The translations under genes were made by a program, and so were the position numbers. The notes under the pieces are model-generated. The model was given only the letters and a program-made list of their open reading frames with translations. It searched no databases and was not told the DNA's origin. 64,000 nucleotides of DNA from Escherichia coli (GTDB taxonomy: Bacteria; Pseudomonadota; Gammaproteobacteria; Enterobacterales; Enterobacteriaceae): NCBI RefSeq assembly GCF_036507355.1, contig NZ_AP027877.1; one strand, given 5' to 3'. The first letter of the stretch is position 1; each line of letters starts with the position of its first letter. Of the stretch, positions 7,779 to 20,806 are shown piece after piece.

Positions 7779-9302
7779 ATGAACGACAAAATCAGTCAGG
7801 ACACGATCAACAAAGCCCTGTGGGCCGCGTGTGATACGTTCCGTGGCACCATCAGTGCTGATACCTATAAAGACTTTATCCTTACCATGCTGTTCCTCAA
7901 GTACATTTCAGATGTCTGGCAGGATCACTACGACGAATATAAAGTGCAATATGGCGATGCGCCGGAACTGATTGAAGCGATGATGGCGAACGAGCGCTTC
8001 GTGTTGCCGAAAAGCGCCAGTTTCTATGCGTTGTACGAGCGACGTCATGAGCCGGGCAACGGTGAGCGTATCGATCAGGCGCTGCATGCGATTGAAGAAG
8101 CCAACGGCACCAAACTGAAAGATGCCGGGAAAAGTGTCTTCCAGGATATTTCGTTTAACACTGACCGTCTGGGCGAAGAAAAACAGAAGAACACCATCCT
8201 GCGTCAGTTGCTGGAAGACTTTGCCGGTGAAGATCTTAACCTGAAGCCAAGCCGTGTCGGTACGCTGGACGTTATCGGTAATGCTTACGAATATCTGATC
8301 AAAAACTTTGCTGCCAGCGGTGGGCAGAAAGCCGGGGAATTCTATACCCCGCCGGAAGTTTCGGACCTGATTGCTGAACTGCTCGATCCGCAACCGGGTG
8401 ATACCATCTGCGATCCGGCCTGTGGTTCGGGTTCATTGTTGATGAAGTGTGGGCGTAAAATTGTCTCCGGGCATGATAGTCGTAACTATGCATTGTTCGG
8501 TCAGGAAGCGATCGGTTCTACGTGGTCGCTGGCGAAAATGAATATGTTCCTGCACGGGGAAGACAACCATAAAATCGAGTGGGGCGATACCATTCGTAAC
8601 CCGAAGCTGCTCGATAAAAATGGCGACCTGATGCTGTTTGATATCGTGACCGCTAACCCACCGTTCAGCCTCGATAAGTGGGGCCATGACGAGGCCGAGA
8701 ACGATAAGTTTGGCCGTTTTCGTCGCGGTGTACCGCCGAAGACTAAAGGAGATTACGCTTTTATCTCGCATATGATCGAAACCCTGAAACCGGGAACTGG
8801 CCGTATGGGCGTAGTTGTGCCACACGGTGTGCTTTTCCGTGGCTCCAGCGAAGGTAAAATTCGCCAGAAACTGATCGACGAAAATTTGCTGGATGCGGTA
8901 ATTGGTCTGCCGGAAAAACTGTTCTACGGTACGGGGATTCCGGCTGCGATTCTGATTTTTAAAAAGCAGAAAGTTGATGACAAGGTGCTGTTTATCGATG
9001 CCAGCCGTGAATTCAAGGCAGGTAAAAACCAGAACCAGCTTAGCGAAGAAAACATTAAGAAAATCGTCAAGACCTACCGTGATGGCGATAACGTCGAGAA
9101 ATACGCCTATCTTGCCAGCCTGAAGGAAATTCAGGACAACGACTATAATCTCAATATCCCGCGCTATGTCGATACCTTTGAAGAAGAGGATGAGATTGAC
9201 CTGCTGGCGGTGCGAGCAGAACGCGAGCAACTGAAGGCGGAATTGGCGAAGCTGGAAACGGAGATGGCTGGATATTTGAAGGAGTTGGGTTATGGCTCGT
9301 GA
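7779..9302 (+). CDS. hsdM: Type I restriction-modification system, DNA methyltransferase subunit M
   Basis: 507 aa; N6-adenine MTase motifs including DIVTANPPF and the AdoMet-binding region DPACGSGSLL. Confidence 0.95.
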   Translation: MNDKISQDTINKALWAACDTFRGTISADTYKDFILTMLFLKYISDVWQDHYDEYKVQYGDAPELIEAMMANERFVLPKSASFYALYERRHEPGNGERIDQALHAIEEANGTKLKDAGKSVFQDISFNTDRLGEEKQKNTILRQLLEDFAGEDLNLKPSRVGTLDVIGNAYEYLIKNFAASGGQKAGEFYTPPEVSDLIAELLDPQPGDTICDPACGSGSLLMKCGRKIVSGHDSRNYALFGQEAIGSTWSLAKMNMFLHGEDNHKIEWGDTIRNPKLLDKNGDLMLFDIVTANPPFSLDKWGHDEAENDKFGRFRRGVPPKTKGDYAFISHMIETLKPGTGRMGVVVPHGVLFRGSSEGKIRQKLIDENLLDAVIGLPEKLFYGTGIPAAILIFKKQKVDDKVLFIDASREFKAGKNQNQLSEENIKKIVKTYRDGDNVEKYAYLASLKEIQDNDYNLNIPRYVDTFEEEDEIDLLAVRAEREQLKAELAKLETEMAGYLKELGYGS

Positions 9303-10566
9303 TTCGCTTTACCCAGTGAGCGTTAAAGCTGGAAAACCGATCCTTGGAATGCTACCTACAGGATGGCAAAAGTTATCATTAGAAAAGTGCTTAAATATAG
9401 AGGCAAGAAAGGCATATATACAAGATAATCAAGAGTATGACTTAGTTACAGTAAAGCGCTCCAGAGGTGGCGTAATAAGACGTGAGCATCTTAAAGGAAA
9501 AGATATCTCCGTAAAAAGTCAATTCTATATTAAAGAAGGCGACTTTCTCATATCAAAACGACAAATTGTGCACGGTGCTTGCGGTCTTGTACCTAAAGAA
9601 CTTTCTGGCTCAATTGTATCGAATGAATATTGTGTGCTTACAGGGAAGTCCGGTTTTTATCTTCCTTATATGGAATTTCTATCGGAGTCTCTATATTTCC
9701 AGCAAACCTGCTTCCACTCTAGCATTGGTGTGCACATAGAGAAAATGATTTTTAAGTTAGATAGTTGGTTTAAGTGGCCATTTAATATCCCCCCACTGTC
9801 TGAACAAAAGAGAATCGTTAAAATCCTGTCAACCTGGGATAAGGCGATTTCGGTGACGGAAAAGCTTCTCACCAACAGTCAGCAGCAGAAAAAAGCCCTG
9901 ATGCAGCAATTGCTTACCGGGAAAAAACGCTTGCTGGATGAGAGGGGGGTGAGGTTTAGTGGGGAGTGGAAGAGAGTAAAACTGGGTGCGATAGCCGATA
10001 TGAACAGTGGAGGTACTCCGAAATCAACGGTTGAAGAGTATTATGGCGGGAATATCCCATGGGTATCTATTTCTGATATGACATCTAATGGAAAGTGGAT
10101 TGCTACAACTGAAAAATATCTGACTGAATTAGGATTGAACAGTTCATCCGCAAGAATATATCCAAAAAACTCGGTTCTTTATGCTATGTATGCTTCTATA
10201 GGTGAATGCAGCATTGCTGCTGTAAATTTAACATCTTCGCAGGCAATCTTGGGTATTAGACCAAAAGATTGTTTAAATTATGAGTTTTTATATTTCTATC
10301 TTACATCATTAAAAGAAAAAATAAAACTGCAAGGCCAGCAAGGTACACAGTCCAACCTAAACGCCGGAATGGTTAAAGAGTTTGAACTAGACTTACCCAG
10401 TATAAGAGAACAACAAAAAATCGCCGCCGTCCTGTCCGTCGCCGATGCCGAAATCTCCACGCTGGAGAAAAAACTCGCCTGCCTGAGAGATGAGAAAAAA
10501 GCCCTGATGCAACAGCTACTGACTGGCAAACGTCGTGTTAAGGTCGATGAGGCGGTTGCCGAATGA
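9292..10566 (+). CDS. hsdS: Type I restriction-modification system, specificity subunit S
   Basis: 424 aa; two AT-rich target-recognition domains separated by the repeated conserved segment KKALMQQLLTGKKRL / KKALMQQLLTGKRRV; start overlaps the hsdM stop by 11 nt. Confidence 0.95.
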   Translation: MARDSLYPVSVKAGKPILGMLPTGWQKLSLEKCLNIEARKAYIQDNQEYDLVTVKRSRGGVIRREHLKGKDISVKSQFYIKEGDFLISKRQIVHGACGLVPKELSGSIVSNEYCVLTGKSGFYLPYMEFLSESLYFQQTCFHSSIGVHIEKMIFKLDSWFKWPFNIPPLSEQKRIVKILSTWDKAISVTEKLLTNSQQQKKALMQQLLTGKKRLLDERGVRFSGEWKRVKLGAIADMNSGGTPKSTVEEYYGGNIPWVSISDMTSNGKWIATTEKYLTELGLNSSSARIYPKNSVLYAMYASIGECSIAAVNLTSSQAILGIRPKDCLNYEFLYFYLTSLKEKIKLQGQQGTQSNLNAGMVKEFELDLPSIREQQKIAAVLSVADAEISTLEKKLACLRDEKKALMQQLLTGKRRVKVDEAVAE

Positions 10567-11246
10567 AACTGACGAAAAGCGGTCCACTGACTGACCGGGA
10601 AATCGACTGGCTGGAAGAAATATTAATGAAGTATGGAATGGATGATTCTGTACTCTGTTTCTCTGAGCTGGATGGATTGCTGACGGCGATTTTATCAGGT
10701 CCAAATATGGTTTCACCCAATATCTGGCTGAGTGCTATTTGGGGAGGAGGCGATTATCATCCGAAATGGTCATCTGAGAGAGAGATGGAGCGTTTTGTCA
10801 GTCTGTGTTTTCAGCATATGAACGATATCGCTGGTTGCCTTTATGACGCCCCTGAACTGTTTGAGCCGATTTTCAATGAGCGTGAGGTAAAGGGGGAAAA
10901 ATATACCATTGTGGAAGAGTGGTGTTTTGGTTATATGAAAGGAAAGTCACTGGATGACTGGTCTGGTCTTCCCGGTGAGTTACGGCCTTCTCTGGAAGTG
11001 ATCGCTCTTCATGGCGTGGAGAAGAATTTTCCTGTACTTGAGAAAATGACCAGAGAGCAGTTTGAGAAAAGTATTTCCCTTATTAAGCCTGCTGCACTGG
11101 CACTTTATCAGTACTGGTTGTCAGTGAGAATGTCAGAGGCATCATCCCGGCCTGTTCCAGTGAAGGGGGCAGAAAACATGCCCGGGCGAAATGACCCGTG
11201 TCCGTGTGGCAGCGGTAAAAAATTTAAGAAGTGCTGTCTGCATTGA
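10563..11246 (+). CDS. YecA/UPF0149-family protein with C-terminal SEC-C metal-binding motif, embedded between hsdS and hsdR
   Basis: 227 aa; C-terminal [20 protein letters not shown]; colinear with chromosomal YecA (20141-20806) along its whole length; ATGA overlap with the hsdS stop. Confidence 0.85.
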   Translation: MKLTKSGPLTDREIDWLEEILMKYGMDDSVLCFSELDGLLTAILSGPNMVSPNIWLSAIWGGGDYHPKWSSEREMERFVSLCFQHMNDIAGCLYDAPELFEPIFNEREVKGEKYTIVEEWCFGYMKGKSLDDWSGLPGELRPSLEVIALHGVEKNFPVLEKMTREQFEKSISLIKPAALALYQYWLSVRMSEASSRPVPVKGAENMPGRNDPCPCGSGKKFKKCCLH

Positions 11247-14200: not shown

Positions 14201-14583
14201 TGAAACAGTACCTTTTGTTCCGTGAATTTGAAGAACAGGTTGAAGCCCGTAAGCTCAGCGATATCCCGGATGCACTGGCGGTAAACAAGCATGCTCAGGC
14301 GTATTACGGTGTATTTAAAAAAGAGCTACCTGAGGTTTTTGCGGTAAACGACGTTCAGGTGCAGGATAAGTGGACCAAGCTGGCTTTTGAAGTGGACAAC
14401 ATTATCGTCAAAGCGGTGGCAGAAAACTCCCTGAACCCCCAGGACATTGAGAAAGTCGTTAAGACAAGTCTGCTACCACTGCTGTTTACGGCCTGCCGGG
14501 AAATTGGTGCCGGAATGAATCAGGTTAACCGTATTGTGGAAACCATCATCCAGATACTGCGCGTTGGTTTGATGAAATCATGA
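11296..14583 (+). CDS. hsdR: Type I restriction enzyme, restriction (helicase-nuclease) subunit R
   Basis: 1095 aa; Walker A TGSGKSYTM and DEAH-box LIDEGHRSQ; typical HsdR N-terminus. Confidence 0.95.
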   Translation: MMNQTYTPKFQEEYSAKIPALTLLTSLGWTFLSPKQIMDYRGYKQDEVVLRPVLREELSKRSFMAGGKTCQLSEKALDNLISQVCSPALNEGLLKANERMYNHLLYGIAVTEFVDGKKVNPTIALIDWEHPESNQFHFTEEFTVLRSGGVETRRPDIVCFVNGIPLAVIEAKSPAGHGKKGPTIDEGISQSIRNQLNDEIPQLFAYSQILLSINGHDGRYGTCHTPMKFWAAWREEDITYAQMYALRNHKLSTEQIHALFDDRPSVDLKWYQQLIDGGELAVSGQDKLLISLLSPERLLEMTRFFTLFDKKTGKIVARYQQVFGIKRLLERISTRRPDGGREGGVIWHTTGSGKSYTMVFLSKALILHDSLKQCRIVVVTDRVDLEGQLSGTFVSGGELAGKDDKAKAMATSGQKLAQQIGSGKERIIFTLIQKFNSATKLPECVNTSPDIIVLIDEGHRSQGGENHVRMKLALPNAAFVAFTGTPLLKEDKTTNKFGPIVHAYTMQRAVEDKAVTPLLYEERIPDLEVNDRAIDAWFDRITDGLSEAQKADLKRKYARKGEVYSADDRIRLIALDIATHFSKNIDEGLKGQLACDSKISAIKYKKYLDEAGLFESAVVISPPDTREGNTEVDESKLPEVTKWWKDNVGTQDESVYTRNIISRFDTDEKLKLLIVVDKLLTGFDEPKNTVLYIDKPLKSHNLIQAIARVNRLHPLKKFGLLIDYRGILAELDTTIGKYQDLASRTQGGYDIKDIDGLYSAMSSEYKRLPHLYNQLWAIFAGVKNKNDTEQLRAVLVPKMEERDGEMVDIHQKTRDDFFEALTAFAGCLKVALQSATFFTDKSFTEQDRNLYKETVKQMSSLRQWAMQVSGEQVNYDDYAEQVKKLLDKHVTGVEVREPDGVYEVGKMGKSEKPEEWDNNKTRNETDIIKTRVTKMIEQELRDDPYAQEAFSKLLRMAIEEAEKLFDHPLKQYLLFREFEEQVEARKLSDIPDALAVNKHAQAYYGVFKKELPEVFAVNDVQVQDKWTKLAFEVDNIIVKAVAENSLNPQDIEKVVKTSLLPLLFTACREIGAGMNQVNRIVETIIQILRVGLMKS

Positions 14584-15335
14584 GTGAAAAAGAATCGCCA
14601 TCAATGAAAGCGTTACGCATTGTCTATGGTGATGATGTCATCACCGTACAGTGTGTTCCGCGTCAGGTCGTAAAGGGCAGGGTGCTCATCAAGGTTTATC
14701 CGGACTGCCGGGTTGTGGCCTCTGTACCGCCTGAAACACCGGAGCACGAGGTATTGTCTGCGCTGAAAAAAAGAGGGCGCTGGATATACCAGCAACTGCG
14801 TGATTTCAGGGAGCAACAGACACACATTGTTCCGCGTCAGTATGTCAGCGGAGAAAGCCATTATTATCTCGGTAAGCAATATCAGTTGAAAGTGACAGAA
14901 GACGCTACTGTGCCGCAACGAGTGAAAATGTTGCGTGGGCGTCTGGAAGTGACTGTCAGACACAAATCGGCAGAAAAGATTAAAGCCTTGCTGGCTGAAT
15001 GGTATCGGGAACGTGCCAGAGATGTTTTTCAGCGCAGGCTTGATTTACTGATTCCGCAGACCCTTTGGGTCAGTGAGCGTCCTCCGATACGTCTGCGGGC
15101 GATGCAAACGCAATGGGGCAACTGTTCAGCAAAAGGCTGTCTGACCCTGAATCCATGGCTGGTTAAGGCATCCTCAGAATGTATCGATTATGTTTTGCTA
15201 CATGAGTTATGCCATGTGGCTGAGCACAACCACAGCGAGGAGTTTTACCGTCTGATGGGGCAGGTTATGCCTGGGTGGGAAAAGGTCAAGAAACGACTGG
15301 ATGGGATGGCTGGGATGTTGTTGGCTGATATGTAA
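14580..15335 (+). CDS. DUF45 / YgjP-like (M48-type) zinc metallopeptidase, translationally coupled to hsdR
   Basis: 251 aa; HEXXH motif HELCHVAEHNH near the C-terminus; ATGA overlap with the hsdR stop. Confidence 0.8.
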   Translation: MSEKESPSMKALRIVYGDDVITVQCVPRQVVKGRVLIKVYPDCRVVASVPPETPEHEVLSALKKRGRWIYQQLRDFREQQTHIVPRQYVSGESHYYLGKQYQLKVTEDATVPQRVKMLRGRLEVTVRHKSAEKIKALLAEWYRERARDVFQRRLDLLIPQTLWVSERPPIRLRAMQTQWGNCSAKGCLTLNPWLVKASSECIDYVLLHELCHVAEHNHSEEFYRLMGQVMPGWEKVKKRLDGMAGMLLADM

Positions 15336-15393
15336 CTTATCAATATGAGTTCTTAAGGGTTTGGTCAGTCTCGTTAATGTAGGGAGTATAATA

Positions 15394-17232
15394 ATGAGTA
15401 AGTTAGATAATAAAATTGAAGCACGCCATCGTAATTTGTTTGATGTTCTAAATGCGCAAAAATATACCGTTGATTACTTTCAGCGCGAGTATAGCTGGGG
15501 TGAGAAACATATTGAAGAGTTGGTTACAGACTTAACATCTGCGTTTCTCAATGAATACACCGTCGGTGATTCTCGGGAGCAGGGTGAAAACTACAATAAT
15601 TATTACTTAGGACCATTTGTTGTGAGTAGTAAAGATGGGAAACGGAGTATTATTGATGGTCAGCAACGACTGACTTCATTAACTTTATTTCTAATTTACC
15701 TCCATAACCTTCAGAAAGAACTTAAATATGAAGAGAAAATAGAATCAATGATTTTCTCCGAGTTACGTGGCAGCAAATCATTCAATATAGTAGTTGAAGA
15801 CAGAATACCTTGCATGGAAGCATTGTTTAATTTTGGTAGCTATAGTTTAGTTGATGGGGATGATGAGTCAACCCATAACATGGTGGAGAGATATCAGAAT
15901 ATCACAGATGCTTTTCCTGATGAATTAAAAGGTCAGGCTTTTCCTTTTTTTATCGACTGGCTTAAGTATAACGTTATTATGGTTGAGATAGTTGCCTATT
16001 CAGATGAAAACGCATATACCATCTTTGAGACTATGAATGACCGAGGATTAAATCTTACTCCGTCCGAAATGCTTAAAGGTTTTTTACTTTCACGCTTTCA
16101 TCAGGGAGATAAACGCCAAAAGGTAAATGAACTCTGGAAAAAAGCGATGATGGATTTAAAAAACTATGATAAAGATGAAGACCAACGTTTTTTCCAGTCA
16201 TGGTTGCGTGCTCAATATGCTGATACAATACGCCCGGGTAAAGCTGGTTCAAAAAATGAAGACTTTGAAAAAATAGGTACGCGTTTTCATAGCTGGGTTA
16301 GAGATAATCTTCAGGCGGTGGGATTGGACCCAGATAATGGTGAGACATTCGAACGATTTATACAAAAAAACTTTTTGTTTTATTTGAATGCCTATACACA
16401 AATACTGAATGCTGAGAGAGCATTAACGCACCAACTGGAATATGTATTTTATATCCACCATTGGGGTATTGCACCTACTTTAAGTTTCCCTTTGATGTTG
16501 GCTCCATTAAATGTAGGTGACAGTCCTGATGCTGTGATAGCCAAAATAAACCTGGTGGCGCGCTATATTGAAACATTTGTTGTTCGTCGTTCTGTTAATT
16601 TCCGAAAATTCTCTGCCAGTTCTATTCGTTACACAATGTACAGTCTTGTTAAAGAAATTCGTGGTAAAAGTATTGAAGAATTAAAAGATTTGTTATCTAA
16701 GAAGTTATCCGAAATGCCAGATACTTTTGCAGGAATGGAAGAGTTTCGTCTCCATGGTCAAAACTATCGTTTTGTGAAGTTTTTGCTTTCTCGTATAACT
16801 GCGTGGGTTGAGCAGCAAGCCGGAATGAGTACAACCTTCATTACATATTATCAGCCAGAACACGGTAAGCCATTTGAAGTCGAGCATATTTGGGCCGATA
16901 AATATGAACGTTACTCTGATGAGTTTGAACAAGAGCACGAATTTAACAATTACAGAAATCGCTTAGGTGATTTGGTTTTATTACCTAGAGGCTCAAACCA
17001 GTCATATGGTGATTTGTGTTACGATCAAAAGCAACCTCATTACATCAAAGAGAATCTCCTGGCTAAATCGTTATGCCCATTGGCATATATGAATAACCCT
17101 AATTTCAATCAGTTGAGAAATGTATTCGGATTGCCTTTCAAACCACATGATTCATTTAAAAAACAAGATGTCGATGAACGACAGTCTTTGTATAAAATAA
17201 TTTGTGAGAATATTTGGGACCATAATTTATAG
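15394..17232 (+). CDS. DUF262 (ParB-like, DGQQR) / DUF1524 (His-Me finger) protein, GmrSD-like type IV restriction candidate
   Basis: Motif IIDGQQRLTSL in the N-terminal half; C-terminal EVEHIWADKY...NRLGDLVLLPRGSNQS. I place the start at ATG 15394 with SD agggag 7 nt upstream; the track uses TTG at 15361. Confidence 0.75.
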   Translation: MSKLDNKIEARHRNLFDVLNAQKYTVDYFQREYSWGEKHIEELVTDLTSAFLNEYTVGDSREQGENYNNYYLGPFVVSSKDGKRSIIDGQQRLTSLTLFLIYLHNLQKELKYEEKIESMIFSELRGSKSFNIVVEDRIPCMEALFNFGSYSLVDGDDESTHNMVERYQNITDAFPDELKGQAFPFFIDWLKYNVIMVEIVAYSDENAYTIFETMNDRGLNLTPSEMLKGFLLSRFHQGDKRQKVNELWKKAMMDLKNYDKDEDQRFFQSWLRAQYADTIRPGKAGSKNEDFEKIGTRFHSWVRDNLQAVGLDPDNGETFERFIQKNFLFYLNAYTQILNAERALTHQLEYVFYIHHWGIAPTLSFPLMLAPLNVGDSPDAVIAKINLVARYIETFVVRRSVNFRKFSASSIRYTMYSLVKEIRGKSIEELKDLLSKKLSEMPDTFAGMEEFRLHGQNYRFVKFLLSRITAWVEQQAGMSTTFITYYQPEHGKPFEVEHIWADKYERYSDEFEQEHEFNNYRNRLGDLVLLPRGSNQSYGDLCYDQKQPHYIKENLLAKSLCPLAYMNNPNFNQLRNVFGLPFKPHDSFKKQDVDERQSLYKIICENIWDHNL

Positions 17233-17290: not shown

Positions 17291-18418
17291 TTGCGTTCTG
17301 AAACGTTTTTTGTCAAATTTATTGAACAACTGAAAGGTATTTCGGTTGAGGATGATGTTGAATTCAATTTTTTTGAATTGGGTGGTTCCGGATATCTCGA
17401 AAATCCAACTACGGATTTGATGGCTTTGTTTATGGGAGCCCAGAAAATGGTGCCGCCATGGTTGCTCAAAGCATTGCTATGTTGCCTGGATGATTCCCTC
17501 GATGTTGATGAAATTGATTTCACTTCTCTGGAGCTAATGAGAGAGGCCCGAACAGAAGATGGGAAATATATTGATATTCTTATCAGACATGATGAATTCA
17601 TTATAGGTATTGAGCATAAAGTTCTGGCTGATACATATAATCCTTTTCCCAGCTATGTAAGTCTCATTGATAGTTACGGCGGCAACAATCAAAAACTATT
17701 TCGCTGTATATTAAAGCCTGACGGTAACAGCGCTAAAGGCGTAGACGGTTGGCAACTGATCAATTATTCACTGCTGCTGGAAACCGCCATTCGACGTCTG
17801 GGGTTGGAGATGATGAATCAAGAGTTCAGCAAGTGGACTGTTTTTTATCAGGAGTTTTTAAGTCATCTTAAAAAATTGAGTGAGGTTAGTATGGATAAGG
17901 TATCTGATAAAAATGTGGAGTTTGTCACTGAAAATTTCTCAGCTTTGATAAAATCGGTTCAACTGCTGGAAATGTACCAAAATGCTATCACCGAGGAAGC
18001 TAAATCGGTTGTCTCAGAGGTATTGCCTGATATTCATATTGCAACAGGTATTAATAACTGGAAGGGTTACTATAAAGCAATTCATCTGATGCCGGGATGC
18101 TGGGGGCAAGGTAAAACAGGAATTACGTTAGTTTATCGCCCTTCAGAGGATGGACGAGATGAAGCTGAGTTCTACGTATATGGATGGATACATTCAGATG
18201 ATTACCCTGAAGTTAATGCACTAAAAGAAGAAATAAGAGTTGCTTTAAGTGCTGGAGATTTCATTCCAACAGCTAGCCCTGAGGACTATGAAGTATCAAT
18301 TACTGGGAAGGGGAAAGTGCTTGAACTGAGTTTTTGGGGGAATACGAGAAGCAAAAAAGATGCACTGGTTCTTCTTAAGGATATGACTAAGTGGATGGAC
18401 TCAAAAATAAGAACATAA
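17291..18418 (+). CDS. Hypothetical protein, 375 aa, with PD-(D/E)XK-like motif
   Basis: TTG start preceded by strong SD aaaaggagg; YIDILIRHDEFIIGIEHKV resembles a D...E-x-K nuclease core; remainder has no recognisable domain. Confidence 0.5.
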   Translation: MRSETFFVKFIEQLKGISVEDDVEFNFFELGGSGYLENPTTDLMALFMGAQKMVPPWLLKALLCCLDDSLDVDEIDFTSLELMREARTEDGKYIDILIRHDEFIIGIEHKVLADTYNPFPSYVSLIDSYGGNNQKLFRCILKPDGNSAKGVDGWQLINYSLLLETAIRRLGLEMMNQEFSKWTVFYQEFLSHLKKLSEVSMDKVSDKNVEFVTENFSALIKSVQLLEMYQNAITEEAKSVVSEVLPDIHIATGINNWKGYYKAIHLMPGCWGQGKTGITLVYRPSEDGRDEAEFYVYGWIHSDDYPEVNALKEEIRVALSAGDFIPTASPEDYEVSITGKGKVLELSFWGNTRSKKDALVLLKDMTKWMDSKIRT

Positions 18419-18522
18419 AGTAATATGACTGAGTGATGACGATCTTTTTTAAATTGTGGATTATTAGGCTGGTAATTGAAGCGCCGAATAGACAGATATT
18501 GGAATAAAAGGAGAATATTCAA

Positions 18523-19704
18523 ATGATTTATCAGTGTGATACTTGCAGTAGAACGACTTTTGAGGTTAATTGTCCCTGGTGTAGTGGAGTTTCGCCTGTA
18601 AAAACGTCTGCATGGGGTTCAGCATCATCGACCGCACAAGCAATAGGCATACAACGTATGACACCATTGAATCCATCGTTTTATCCCGAATTTCAGTATC
18701 GTTCAAAGGGTGTTCTAAAAGATCTATTTGGGAAAAAGAAAGAGCAAACTCAGCTTAATCAATTGCTTGAAAATGTTCTCAAAAAATACTCCAGTTTAAA
18801 AGATCCATATTTTACTAACTTCATTTACACTTCCAGATTCTCACATAATAATAAATCGGAAGCAGATTACTCAACAGATAATGGTACATACTCCGAATTA
18901 CAACTTTTCCGTGAGGTGTTGGTCAGAAAAGGGTTCAATGAGCTTGAGCAGTTACCTGAGCTATTAGATAAATTACTCCTTACCACGTCATTTAACGCTC
19001 TTTATTATGGTTTCGCTAAGGAAGTTAAACGGCATATTAAATCCACACTTACTGAATCCTTGAAGTCATGGATTGAGGAAGCGGGTACCACTTTTAGGGC
19101 AGATCTTTCATTGTTTCTATTCTATATATGGAGCAATAAAATAGAGTTCTCATCAGTAGAGTTCAATGAAAAAGCGGAGGCTACGCCTGGTGTTCCTTTA
19201 GTTTCATTTGATGAAGTTAAAAAATACTTAGCTGTGTGCGAACATATTTATTTTGATATTCTGGTTGATAGATTAGCTACACGGCTCGAACATTTTAACC
19301 CTAACAAATTCGTCACCATGTATTTAGTTGATGCAATGGACGGTTTCCAGTTTGAAGATTTCCTTGTGGAAGTATTCCAGACTATGGGCTATGACGTCAA
19401 AGAAACCAAGAGAACGCAAGATCAGGGGGCAGATCTCTTCGTCACTCGATTTGGTAAGGATATGGTTATTCAGGCGAAAAATTATTCTGGTTCTGTAGGT
19501 AACTCGGCGGTGCAGCAGGTGATCTCTGCTAAAACATTCTATGGTTGTGATGAGGCGATGGTTGTGACTAATTCCTACTTCACACGCTCTGCCAAAGAAT
19601 TAGCTGAATCAGCCTTGGTACGTTTGATCGACAGGGATGAACTGCAAAAGTATCTGGATGATTACAATCAGAAGATAATTGAAGATTTCCAGTCAAACTC
19701 GTAA
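18523..19704 (+). CDS. Restriction endonuclease-like protein: N-terminal Cys4 zinc-ribbon plus C-terminal Mrr catalytic domain
   Basis: N-terminus CDTCSRTTFEVNCPWC; C-terminus GADLFVT...VIQAKNYSGSV...VVTNSYFTRSAKELA...LIDRDEL, colinear with the E. coli Mrr catalytic region as I recall it (D...Q-x-K). Confidence 0.75.
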   Translation: MIYQCDTCSRTTFEVNCPWCSGVSPVKTSAWGSASSTAQAIGIQRMTPLNPSFYPEFQYRSKGVLKDLFGKKKEQTQLNQLLENVLKKYSSLKDPYFTNFIYTSRFSHNNKSEADYSTDNGTYSELQLFREVLVRKGFNELEQLPELLDKLLLTTSFNALYYGFAKEVKRHIKSTLTESLKSWIEEAGTTFRADLSLFLFYIWSNKIEFSSVEFNEKAEATPGVPLVSFDEVKKYLAVCEHIYFDILVDRLATRLEHFNPNKFVTMYLVDAMDGFQFEDFLVEVFQTMGYDVKETKRTQDQGADLFVTRFGKDMVIQAKNYSGSVGNSAVQQVISAKTFYGCDEAMVVTNSYFTRSAKELAESALVRLIDRDELQKYLDDYNQKIIEDFQSNS

Positions 19705-19889: not shown

Positions 19890-19945
19890 ATTTAAAATCC
19901 CTCGGCGTTCGCGCTGTGCGGGTTCAAGTCCCGCTCCGGGTACCA
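19890..19945 (+). repeat. 3'-terminal 56 nt of tRNA-Leu (leuZ-type; anticodon loop to CCA), the att-site remnant at the right boundary of the element
   Basis: ATTTAAAATCCCTCGGCGTTCGCGCTGTGCGGGTTCAAGTCCCGCTCCGGGTACCA matches the 3' part of tRNA-Leu(UAA) as I recall it; the 5' acceptor and D-arm are absent upstream, so this is not a complete tRNA gene. Confidence 0.8.
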
Positions 19946-19988
19946 TGGGAAAGATAAGAATAAAATCAAAGCAATAAGCAGTGTCGTG

Positions 19989-20013
19989 AAACCACCTTCG
20001 GGTGGTTTTTTTG
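19989..20013 (+). terminator. Rho-independent terminator (aaccacc ttcg ggtggtt + T-run) downstream of the tRNA remnant
   Basis: Perfect 7-bp stem, 4-nt loop, run of 7 T. Confidence 0.65.
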
Positions 20014-20140: not shown

Positions 20141-20806
20141 ATGAAAACGGGACCGTTAAACGAAAGTGAGTTGGAATGGCTGGACGATATTCTGACCAAA
20201 TACAACACTGACCACGCCATCCTTGATGTGGCGGAGCTGGACGGTTTATTGACGGCGGTGTTGAGTTCTCCGCAAGAGATTGAACCGGCACAGTGGCTGG
20301 TTGCCGTGTGGGGTGGGGCTGACTATGTGCCGCGCTGGGCGTCAGAGAAAGAGATGACGCGCTTTATGAACCTGGCTTTTCAACATATGGCCGATACCGC
20401 AGAGCGTCTGAACGAATTCCCGGAGCAGTTTGAGCCGTTATTCGGCTTGCGAGAAGTTGATGGCAGCGAGCTGACGATTGTTGAGGAGTGGTGCTTTGGC
20501 TATATGCGGGGCGTGGCACTTTCTGACTGGTCAACATTGCCCGATTCGTTAAAACCAGCGCTGGAGGCGATAGCGCTGCACGGTACTGAGGAAAACTTCG
20601 AGCGGGTAGAGAAGATGTCGCCAGAAGCGTTTGAAGAGAGCGTAGATGCCATTCGACTGGCGGCGCTTGATCTACATGCGTACTGGATGGCGCATCCGCA
20701 GGAAAAAGCTGTTCAGCAACCGATCATAGCAGAAGAGAAACCGGGGCGTAACGATCCTTGCCCGTGCGGTAGTGGTAAGAAATTTAAGCAGTGCTGCCTG
20801 CATTAA
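20141..20806 (+). CDS. yecA: UPF0149-family protein YecA with SEC-C motif (chromosomal copy)
   Basis: 221 aa; ends [20 protein letters not shown]; position between tRNA-Leu and tyrP as in K-12. Confidence 0.9.

Follow-up and report, generated by a model that had tools for sequence, protein, structure and literature searches.

We found an Escherichia coli gene in which a familiar nuclease domain of the Mrr type is joined to an uncharacterised sensor module that is confined to its own family, and this combination is new. The gene lies in the window, that is, the whole stretch of DNA analysed here (64,000 nucleotides). With a probability that we put at roughly 60%, its product is a defence nuclease that consists of one polypeptide and acts alone, and whose N-terminal module would gate or target the nuclease domain, most likely in a Type IV-like manner. 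The features of the gene and of the island that carries it are collected in Table 1.

Table 1. Positions in the window of the nuclease gene, its predicted domains and residues, and the island features discussed in the text
Feature	Position	Strand	Remarks
Family-B DNA polymerase, first 803 aa	3-2411	-	Runs off the start of the window
YecA-family (UPF0149/SEC-C motif) paralogue	10563-11246	+	PADLOC PDC-S12, E 2e-99; between hsdS and hsdR
M48-family metallopeptidase gene	14580-15335	+	4-nt overlap with the stop codon of hsdR
DUF262/GmrSD-like protein	15361-17232	+	PADLOC HEC-06, Orf5, weak SspE; solitary candidate defence gene
PD-(D/E)XK protein	17291-18418	+	PDC-S26, E 1e-50; solitary candidate defence gene
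Shine-Dalgarno sequence AAGGAG	18508-18513	+	9 nt before the ATG of the nuclease gene
Nuclease gene	18523-19704	+	Complete ORF, 393 aa plus stop; WP_032176356.1 of E. coli
Zinc-ribbon-like knuckle pair CxxC-x8-CxxC (putative), residues 5-20	18535-18582	+	Conservation; AlphaFold2 strands
Hypervariable linker, residues 21-45	18583-18657	+	Predicted disordered; 19% mean identity to the query
Family-private α-helical domain, residues 46-262	18658-19308	+	AlphaFold2 model; no Pfam or fold relative
Mrr_cat (PF04471) PD-(D/E)XK nuclease domain, residues 270-377	19330-19653	+	Pfam E 9.8e-30
Span with the predicted catalytic residues	19354-19479	+	Alignment to EcoKMrr; invariance in homologues
E278, predicted catalytic	19354-19356	+	Counterpart of EcoKMrr E172
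D304, predicted catalytic	19432-19434	+	Counterpart of EcoKMrr D203
Q317, predicted catalytic	19471-19473	+	Counterpart of EcoKMrr Q219
K319, predicted catalytic	19477-19479	+	Counterpart of EcoKMrr K221
attR, duplicated 3' part of tRNA-Leu (leuZ), 56 nt	19890-19945	+	Matches of island-free genomes

The gene and its nuclease domain

The open reading frame is the longest of its frame, and its product is completely identical in sequence to an E. coli protein labelled 'restriction endonuclease' in RefSeq. Because the ATG is preceded by a strong Shine-Dalgarno sequence and the homologues share the MIYQC start, the annotated start is supported as correct, which would make the zinc ribbon the true N-terminus of the protein. 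This N-terminus reads MIYQCDTCSRTTFEVNCPWC, with cysteines at positions 5, 8, 17 and 20 (C5, C8, C17 and C20). A consensus scan for a promoter or a terminator belonging to the gene itself gave nothing above the shuffled expectation.

The first-pass annotation had described the C-terminal ~120 residues as colinear with the catalytic region of Mrr, and both comparisons that we made agree with it. The Pfam Mrr_cat model is matched nearly over its full length (model positions 2-114 of 115), and BLASTP against EcoKMrr (MG1655) pairs residues 276-363 with Mrr residues 170-265 at 27% identity. The four residues predicted to be catalytic, as well as their neighbours (DQGADLFV and VIQAKNY), are invariant in 35 homologues of 60-88% identity. 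An AlphaFold2 model places these four residues on helix 274-287 and on strands 302-309 and 312-319, within an α-β-β-β-α-β core (H274-287, E291-297, E302-309, E312-319, H327-340, E344-349). The block means of pLDDT in this core are 74-93, mostly above 80. The full-length model has a pTM of 0.46 and thus does not give the arrangement of the sensor and the nuclease.

Foldseek comparison of the nuclease half with the PDB returned EndoMS/NucS, AF1548, MspJI, AspBHI and EcoT38I. The likeness to EndoMS/NucS, the top match, is confined to the generic PD-(D/E)XK core, with 16% identity. For relatives of solved structure, single-sequence and profile searches with this half gave nothing useful. Profile match, catalytic residues and core fold, which are all the sequence and fold criteria, place the gene product in the Mrr_cat/PD-(D/E)XK superfamily. 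Its C-terminal domain has the conserved residues and, in the model, the fold of a metal-dependent DNA-cleaving enzyme, with cleavage itself being predicted. The conservation indicates that the Mrr_cat domain is very probably an active nuclease.

The N-terminal module

The N-terminal half had been described beforehand as opening with a Cys4 ribbon and as differing from the canonical N-terminal domain of Mrr, and our results bear out both statements. The 35 homologues down to 60% identity all have C5, C8 and C17, and at least 90% of them have C20; in 108 homologues each of the four cysteines is at least 98% conserved. Most members at 25-40% identity keep the Cys4 pattern; CCCH or shifted variants occur occasionally, and a few of these distant members have start-truncated gene calls. 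Judged by this conservation, the Cys4 pattern is not a product of chance. In the AlphaFold2 model, residues 1-20 (pLDDT 93) form short paired strands (3-5 and 10-12), which also pair with strand 46-48. The two CxxC pairs stand at ribbon spacing and are conserved across the family; we therefore describe them as a putative zinc ribbon, with predicted zinc binding. The following loop differs among aligned homologues in length as well as in sequence, and its residues 26-42 have a pLDDT below 50.

The helical domain comprises four long helices (64-104, 145-171, 176-204 and 229-256) and several short ones. The AlphaFold2 model of the N-terminal module was built from a 25-sequence alignment that included distant members, and it has a mean pLDDT of 87.7 and a pTM of 0.83. 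Across Enterobacterales, Pseudomonas and Burkholderiales, the domain shows 55-65% identity. As the cysteines are conserved and the helical domain is so similar between orders, the N-terminal module appears to be under selection, and it appears to be tied to the nuclease half. A basic stretch (residues 46-124, pI about 9) contains the conserved lysines K62, K66, K71-73, K88 and K93 and the conserved motifs GKKKE and PYFxNF. The rest of the protein is acidic (pI 5.4 for residues 125-262 and 4.4 for the C-terminal domain).

A domain search of the N-terminal half had been set beforehand as the check that could overturn the departure from canonical Mrr. The Pfam Mrr_N domain (PF14338, a winged helix) was found neither in the query nor in 25 family members, and the positive control, EcoKMrr, matched it at E 9.3e-20. 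In addition, nothing in this half aligned with EcoKMrr in BLASTP. Together, these results rule out a canonical Mrr. No other Pfam family significantly matched residues 1-265 of the query or the N-termini of the 25 members, and no NCBIfam model matched the protein. PDB sequences searched with a profile of the N-terminal module gave only non-significant matches to Nop10 zinc ribbons (E 1.3-2). None of the recognised readers of modified DNA (SRA, PUA/EVE/YTH, Mrr_N, SBD, iEndoIII and McrB-N) was found in the module.

Foldseek found no fold relative of the N-terminal module in the PDB or AFDB outside its own family; the eight significant matches in AFDB50 are all 'restriction endonuclease' proteins of the same family or fragments of them. 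An HMM search of 1.84 billion representative proteins found 52, and every full-length one has 340-394 aa and the same layout of zinc ribbon, helical domain and Mrr_cat. A profile search of 5.8 billion clusters found 209 at the level of 90% identity, and the 120 of the 209 that were listed all bear Mrr_cat or are fragments. One protein of 1889 aa has ten short repeated matches to the profile of the module, which looks like a compositional artefact. Among the matches listed, the N-terminal module is, by these profiles, private to the family and has no other effector partner.

Known defence families do not accommodate the protein either. The PADLOC models of ZorD, PDC-S02 and mREase_IV match residues 259-389 only (E 2e-21 to 1e-7). 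These matches cover the C-terminal 125-130 residues, for example at profile positions 185-313 of 334 and 935-1065 of 1071, and the three families were ruled out on this ground. More generally, PADLOC and PHROGs reach the nuclease domain only, and NCBIfam is without a match. An END nuclease was rejected as well, since the inactivated EndoIII/OGG1-like (HhH-GPD) sensor was not found. In terms of sequence, the protein cannot be filed under PDC-S02, ZorD, mREase_IV, NA-iREase1 (discussed below) or the END nucleases. Our literature searches found no publication on this Zn-ribbon-Mrr family.

Distribution and integration sites

The 1182-nt gene is 100% identical in strain HKUOPY1 and in nine further complete genomes. 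It is present in 243 of 5426 complete E. coli genomes (4.5%), in all of them on the chromosome. In a scan of one genome per species, 51 of 100,044 species carried the gene, and these belong to Enterobacterales, Pseudomonas and Burkholderiales, along with a few metagenome-assembled genomes. Between enterobacterial genera, the N-terminal module of the copies is 91-99% identical, indicating recent horizontal transfer. A search of 72,556 plasmids gave one match, to a Burkholderia megaplasmid, and 50,697 phage records gave none. A phage or plasmid gene was rejected on these grounds. Early stops truncate six of the 51 species-representative copies (loci L056-L060 and L062). This suggests recurrent inactivation of the gene, possibly owing to a fitness cost or toxicity; the truncated copies fit a costly or toxic gene without pointing to a mechanism.

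Where a tRNA gene lies within 10 kb (9 loci), it is always upstream of the nuclease gene and on the same strand, with tRNA-Arg found in Klebsiella and tRNA-Gly in Pseudomonas. In Klebsiella, different mobile elements are found between the tRNA and the gene, and the gene stays in place. The gene of Pseudomonas hygromyciniae (locus L006, 4962-9167) lies just after pgsA and tRNA-Gly, as in the pgsA-tRNA hotspot of E. coli, and this integration hotspot appears to be common to different orders. A minimal islet is found in Erwinia mallotivora (L022) and Candidatus Pantoea varia (L023) at 8300-11170; it consists of tRNA-Pro, an integrase and the gene, with nothing else between.

The pipolin in the window

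In the window, the island's cargo ends with this gene, because attR lies about 190 bp beyond its stop codon. Island-free E. coli genomes match from position 19890, and tRNA-Leu is annotated there. The attR sequence ends ...GGTTCAAGTCCCGCTCCGGGTACCA, and the partial leuZ duplicate at attR escapes ARAGORN. After attR, within 19890-20013, there is a stem-loop and a T-run (aaaccaccttcgggtggttttttt), which looks like the original terminator of the tRNA operon.

By its gene content and position, the island is a pipolin (a primer-independent PolB element) at tRNA-Leu between pgsA and yecA. This assignment follows from the family-B polymerase, the DUF2787 gene, the two tyrosine recombinases and the site of insertion. 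The polymerase fragment in the window carries KEIGNSLYGK (motif B-like) and VTTDGF (motif C-like), and the only Pfam match of the 866-aa HKUOPY1 copy is a weak one, to DNA_pol_B_2. The island start in HKUOPY1 shows an intact tRNA-Gly/Cys/Leu cluster after pgsA, the two tyrosine recombinases and the DUF2787 gene. Published pipolins are inserted at the same site, tRNA-Leu between pgsA and yecA, and their defence cargo includes Type I restriction-modification (R-M), PDC-S12, PDC-S26 and HEC-06 (PMC11551731, PMC7385651). The main texts of these two papers make no mention of the Zn-ribbon-Mrr gene.

Upstream of the gene in the window are hsdM, hsdS and hsdR of a Type I R-M system, followed by the M48 peptidase, the DUF262 protein and the PD-(D/E)XK protein. 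Given its overlap with the end of hsdR, the M48 peptidase gene is probably translated together with the Type I genes. At 8 enterobacterial loci it is conserved alongside hsdR, and it matches neither PADLOC nor NCBIfam. Only about 9 kb separate the YecA paralogue from the chromosomal yecA (20141-20806). Among near-identical islands, the DUF262 and PDC-S26 genes come and go independently.

Neighbouring genes

We then clustered the ORFs flanking 47 loci into families. The most frequent neighbour family occurs at no more than 8 of the 47 loci, and those 8 make up one enterobacterial island lineage. No methyltransferase or other obligatory partner is conserved across the 47 loci, so the gene is solitary in the sense of Type IV systems. 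A two-gene system with the upstream PDC-S26 gene was also considered. Within the enterobacterial island lineage, this PD-(D/E)XK gene is either present or absent; the pairing is found in this lineage only, near-identical copies exist without it, and the two-gene system was rejected. The gene upstream of the Pseudomonas copy is unrelated to the PDC-S26 gene.

From loci of Pseudomonas, Burkholderiales and Erwinia, we compared ten large neighbours lying upstream of the gene with PADLOC. They include Gabija GajA twice (once with GajB), a PDC-S06/LmuB-like protein, PDC-S39, PD-Lambda-1, an AbiO/Nhi-like protein, a weak match to a PD-T4-6-like kinase and two integrases. Because no neighbour is conserved and the defence neighbours vary, the gene is an independent cargo gene of variable, tRNA-integrated defence islands. 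The link to defence is one of guilt by association, drawn from about ten neighbours compared with PADLOC. In five Pseudomonas loci (L036 and L040-L043), a 140-aa ORF is conserved on the same strand about 530-600 nt upstream, and it is absent elsewhere. This ORF may encode a partner specific to the lineage, or it may be an open reading frame by chance.

Proposed function and alternatives

In the stand-alone defence nuclease that we propose, the N-terminal module (Cys4 ribbon, variable loop and helical domain) would decide when or on what the nuclease acts. Its most likely mode would be the binding of invading nucleic acid that has a feature absent from host DNA, as in a Type IV-like restriction without a methyltransferase partner. 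Contacts to the nucleic acid may come from the zinc ribbon and from the basic region of residues 46-124, and the nuclease domains would dimerise before they cut. Most likely, the protein acts alone against phages or plasmids, from a mobile defence island. We favour the Type IV-like mode because the layout resembles those of EcoKMrr and MspJI, because the END nucleases offer a precedent, and because the N-terminal module is conserved and combines a ribbon with a basic patch. Helical sensor domains fused to nucleases can indeed be modification-dependent restriction enzymes, as exemplified by the END nucleases (PMC12191111). Among the points against this explanation, the N-terminal module matches no known DNA-binding or modified-base-reading fold, and the protein is acidic overall. 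A bolder version, which we advance tentatively and at somewhat less than even odds, is that the zinc ribbon and helical domain form a previously unrecognised sensor fold. Such a fold might perceive a DNA feature or hypermodification beyond the known Type IV readers, or a phage-encoded trigger, and would license the Mrr-type nuclease in a one-gene immune system that travels on pipolins and other tRNA islands between Enterobacterales, Pseudomonas and Burkholderiales.

The main rival is an abortive-infection nuclease activated by a trigger. Here, the N-terminal module would keep Mrr_cat inactive until a phage protein, a replication intermediate or stress appears, whereupon DNA, including that of the host, would be degraded indiscriminately. 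A sensor domain that is family-private and lacks homology to DNA readers is consistent with this, as is the fitness cost suggested by pseudogenes in 6 of the 51 species. Defence systems commonly use PD-(D/E)XK effectors under the control of a sensor (Shedu, bNACHT-Mrr and ZorD), and EcoKMrr, too, stays latent until stress activates it. However, the N-terminal domain is strongly conserved between orders (55-65%), unlike many fast-evolving sensors of phage proteins, and the protein contains no NTPase or other signalling module. We consider an abortive mechanism rather unlikely. A function outside defence seems improbable to us. The protein might serve the mobile element by maintenance, by addiction or by excluding competitors for the same att site, or it might be a repair or structure-specific nuclease. 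Its invariable place on tRNA-integrated islands, often next to an att end or an integrase, would suit such a role, and so would the Erwinia/Pantoea islet (L022 and L023), the 190 bp to attR in the window copy and the repair nuclease EndoMS/NucS as the top Foldseek match. Yet the gene is found with many integrases and island types, and the Klebsiella copy remains fixed while elements insert beside it. No antitoxin-like or partner gene is conserved, sequenced phages lack the gene and plasmids almost never carry it, and the likeness to NucS is that of the generic core.

It is highly improbable that the Mrr-like domain is dead and that the protein is a non-enzymatic binding or scaffold protein. 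This idea comes from the Pfam family NA-iREase1 ('inactive restriction endonuclease', PF22722), whose match spans residues 277-374 at E 5.6e-15. Mrr_cat matches far more strongly, at about E 1e-29, and the active EcoKMrr also matches NA-iREase1 (E 4.7e-10), indicating that the match is cross-talk within the clan. Moreover, the E, D and QxK residues never vary among the homologues, so no catalytic residue has been lost, and membership in NA-iREase1 was rejected.

Fusions of Mrr_cat to novel domains are common, and a specialist would not be greatly surprised by one more. In bacterial immunity, nuclease domains of the Mrr type are reused with many sensors, and each new sensor defines what counts as foreign. 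The present family is small and well defined and offers a compact example in a single gene; its sensor domain is modelled with confidence and is without detectable relatives, and the gene is carried in defence islands by E. coli and by clinically relevant Klebsiella and Pseudomonas. If modified or therapeutic phages are restricted by the nuclease, this would add a new specificity to the prediction of phage host range and possibly a new DNA-recognition module to enzyme tools. For pipolins, an unclassified cargo gene is added to their defence module. If the protein is an ordinary nuclease with a structural N-terminal domain, the gain would be better annotation only.

Comparison with known systems

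The END nucleases consist of a helical iEndoIII sensor fused to a PLD or a NucS-like PD-DExK nuclease (PMC12191111). Like the family described here, they combine a helical non-catalytic sensor domain with a nuclease and have no methyltransferase, and their stand-alone genes are found in defence islands of Pseudomonas and E. coli (PMC12191111). PDC-S02, ZorD and mREase_IV of PADLOC share the Mrr-like nuclease domain, the match lying in the C-terminal part of their profiles, whereas the N-terminal half is unrelated. PDC-S02 itself is only a candidate defence system. MspJI and AspBHI have a structurally similar nuclease domain (Foldseek E about 1e-3) and the same single-chain layout of sensor and nuclease. 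Their sensor, however, is an SRA β-barrel, whereas that of our family is all-helical with a zinc ribbon, and the N-terminal half of the family has no sequence or fold match to these enzymes.

EcoKMrr is the Type IV methyl-directed restriction enzyme of E. coli K-12 and consists of Mrr_N and Mrr_cat. The two proteins differ in length (304 aa in EcoKMrr and 393 aa here), their 27% identity is limited to the nuclease core, and the Mrr_N winged helix of EcoKMrr is replaced here by the Cys4 ribbon, the variable loop and a helical domain of roughly 215 aa. They are alike in having an N-terminal targeting or regulatory module ahead of a C-terminal Mrr_cat, in the D...QxK arrangement of the active site and in being encoded by a solitary gene without a methyltransferase. 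The protein described here, solitary but without a recognised reader domain, may work like a Type IV enzyme.
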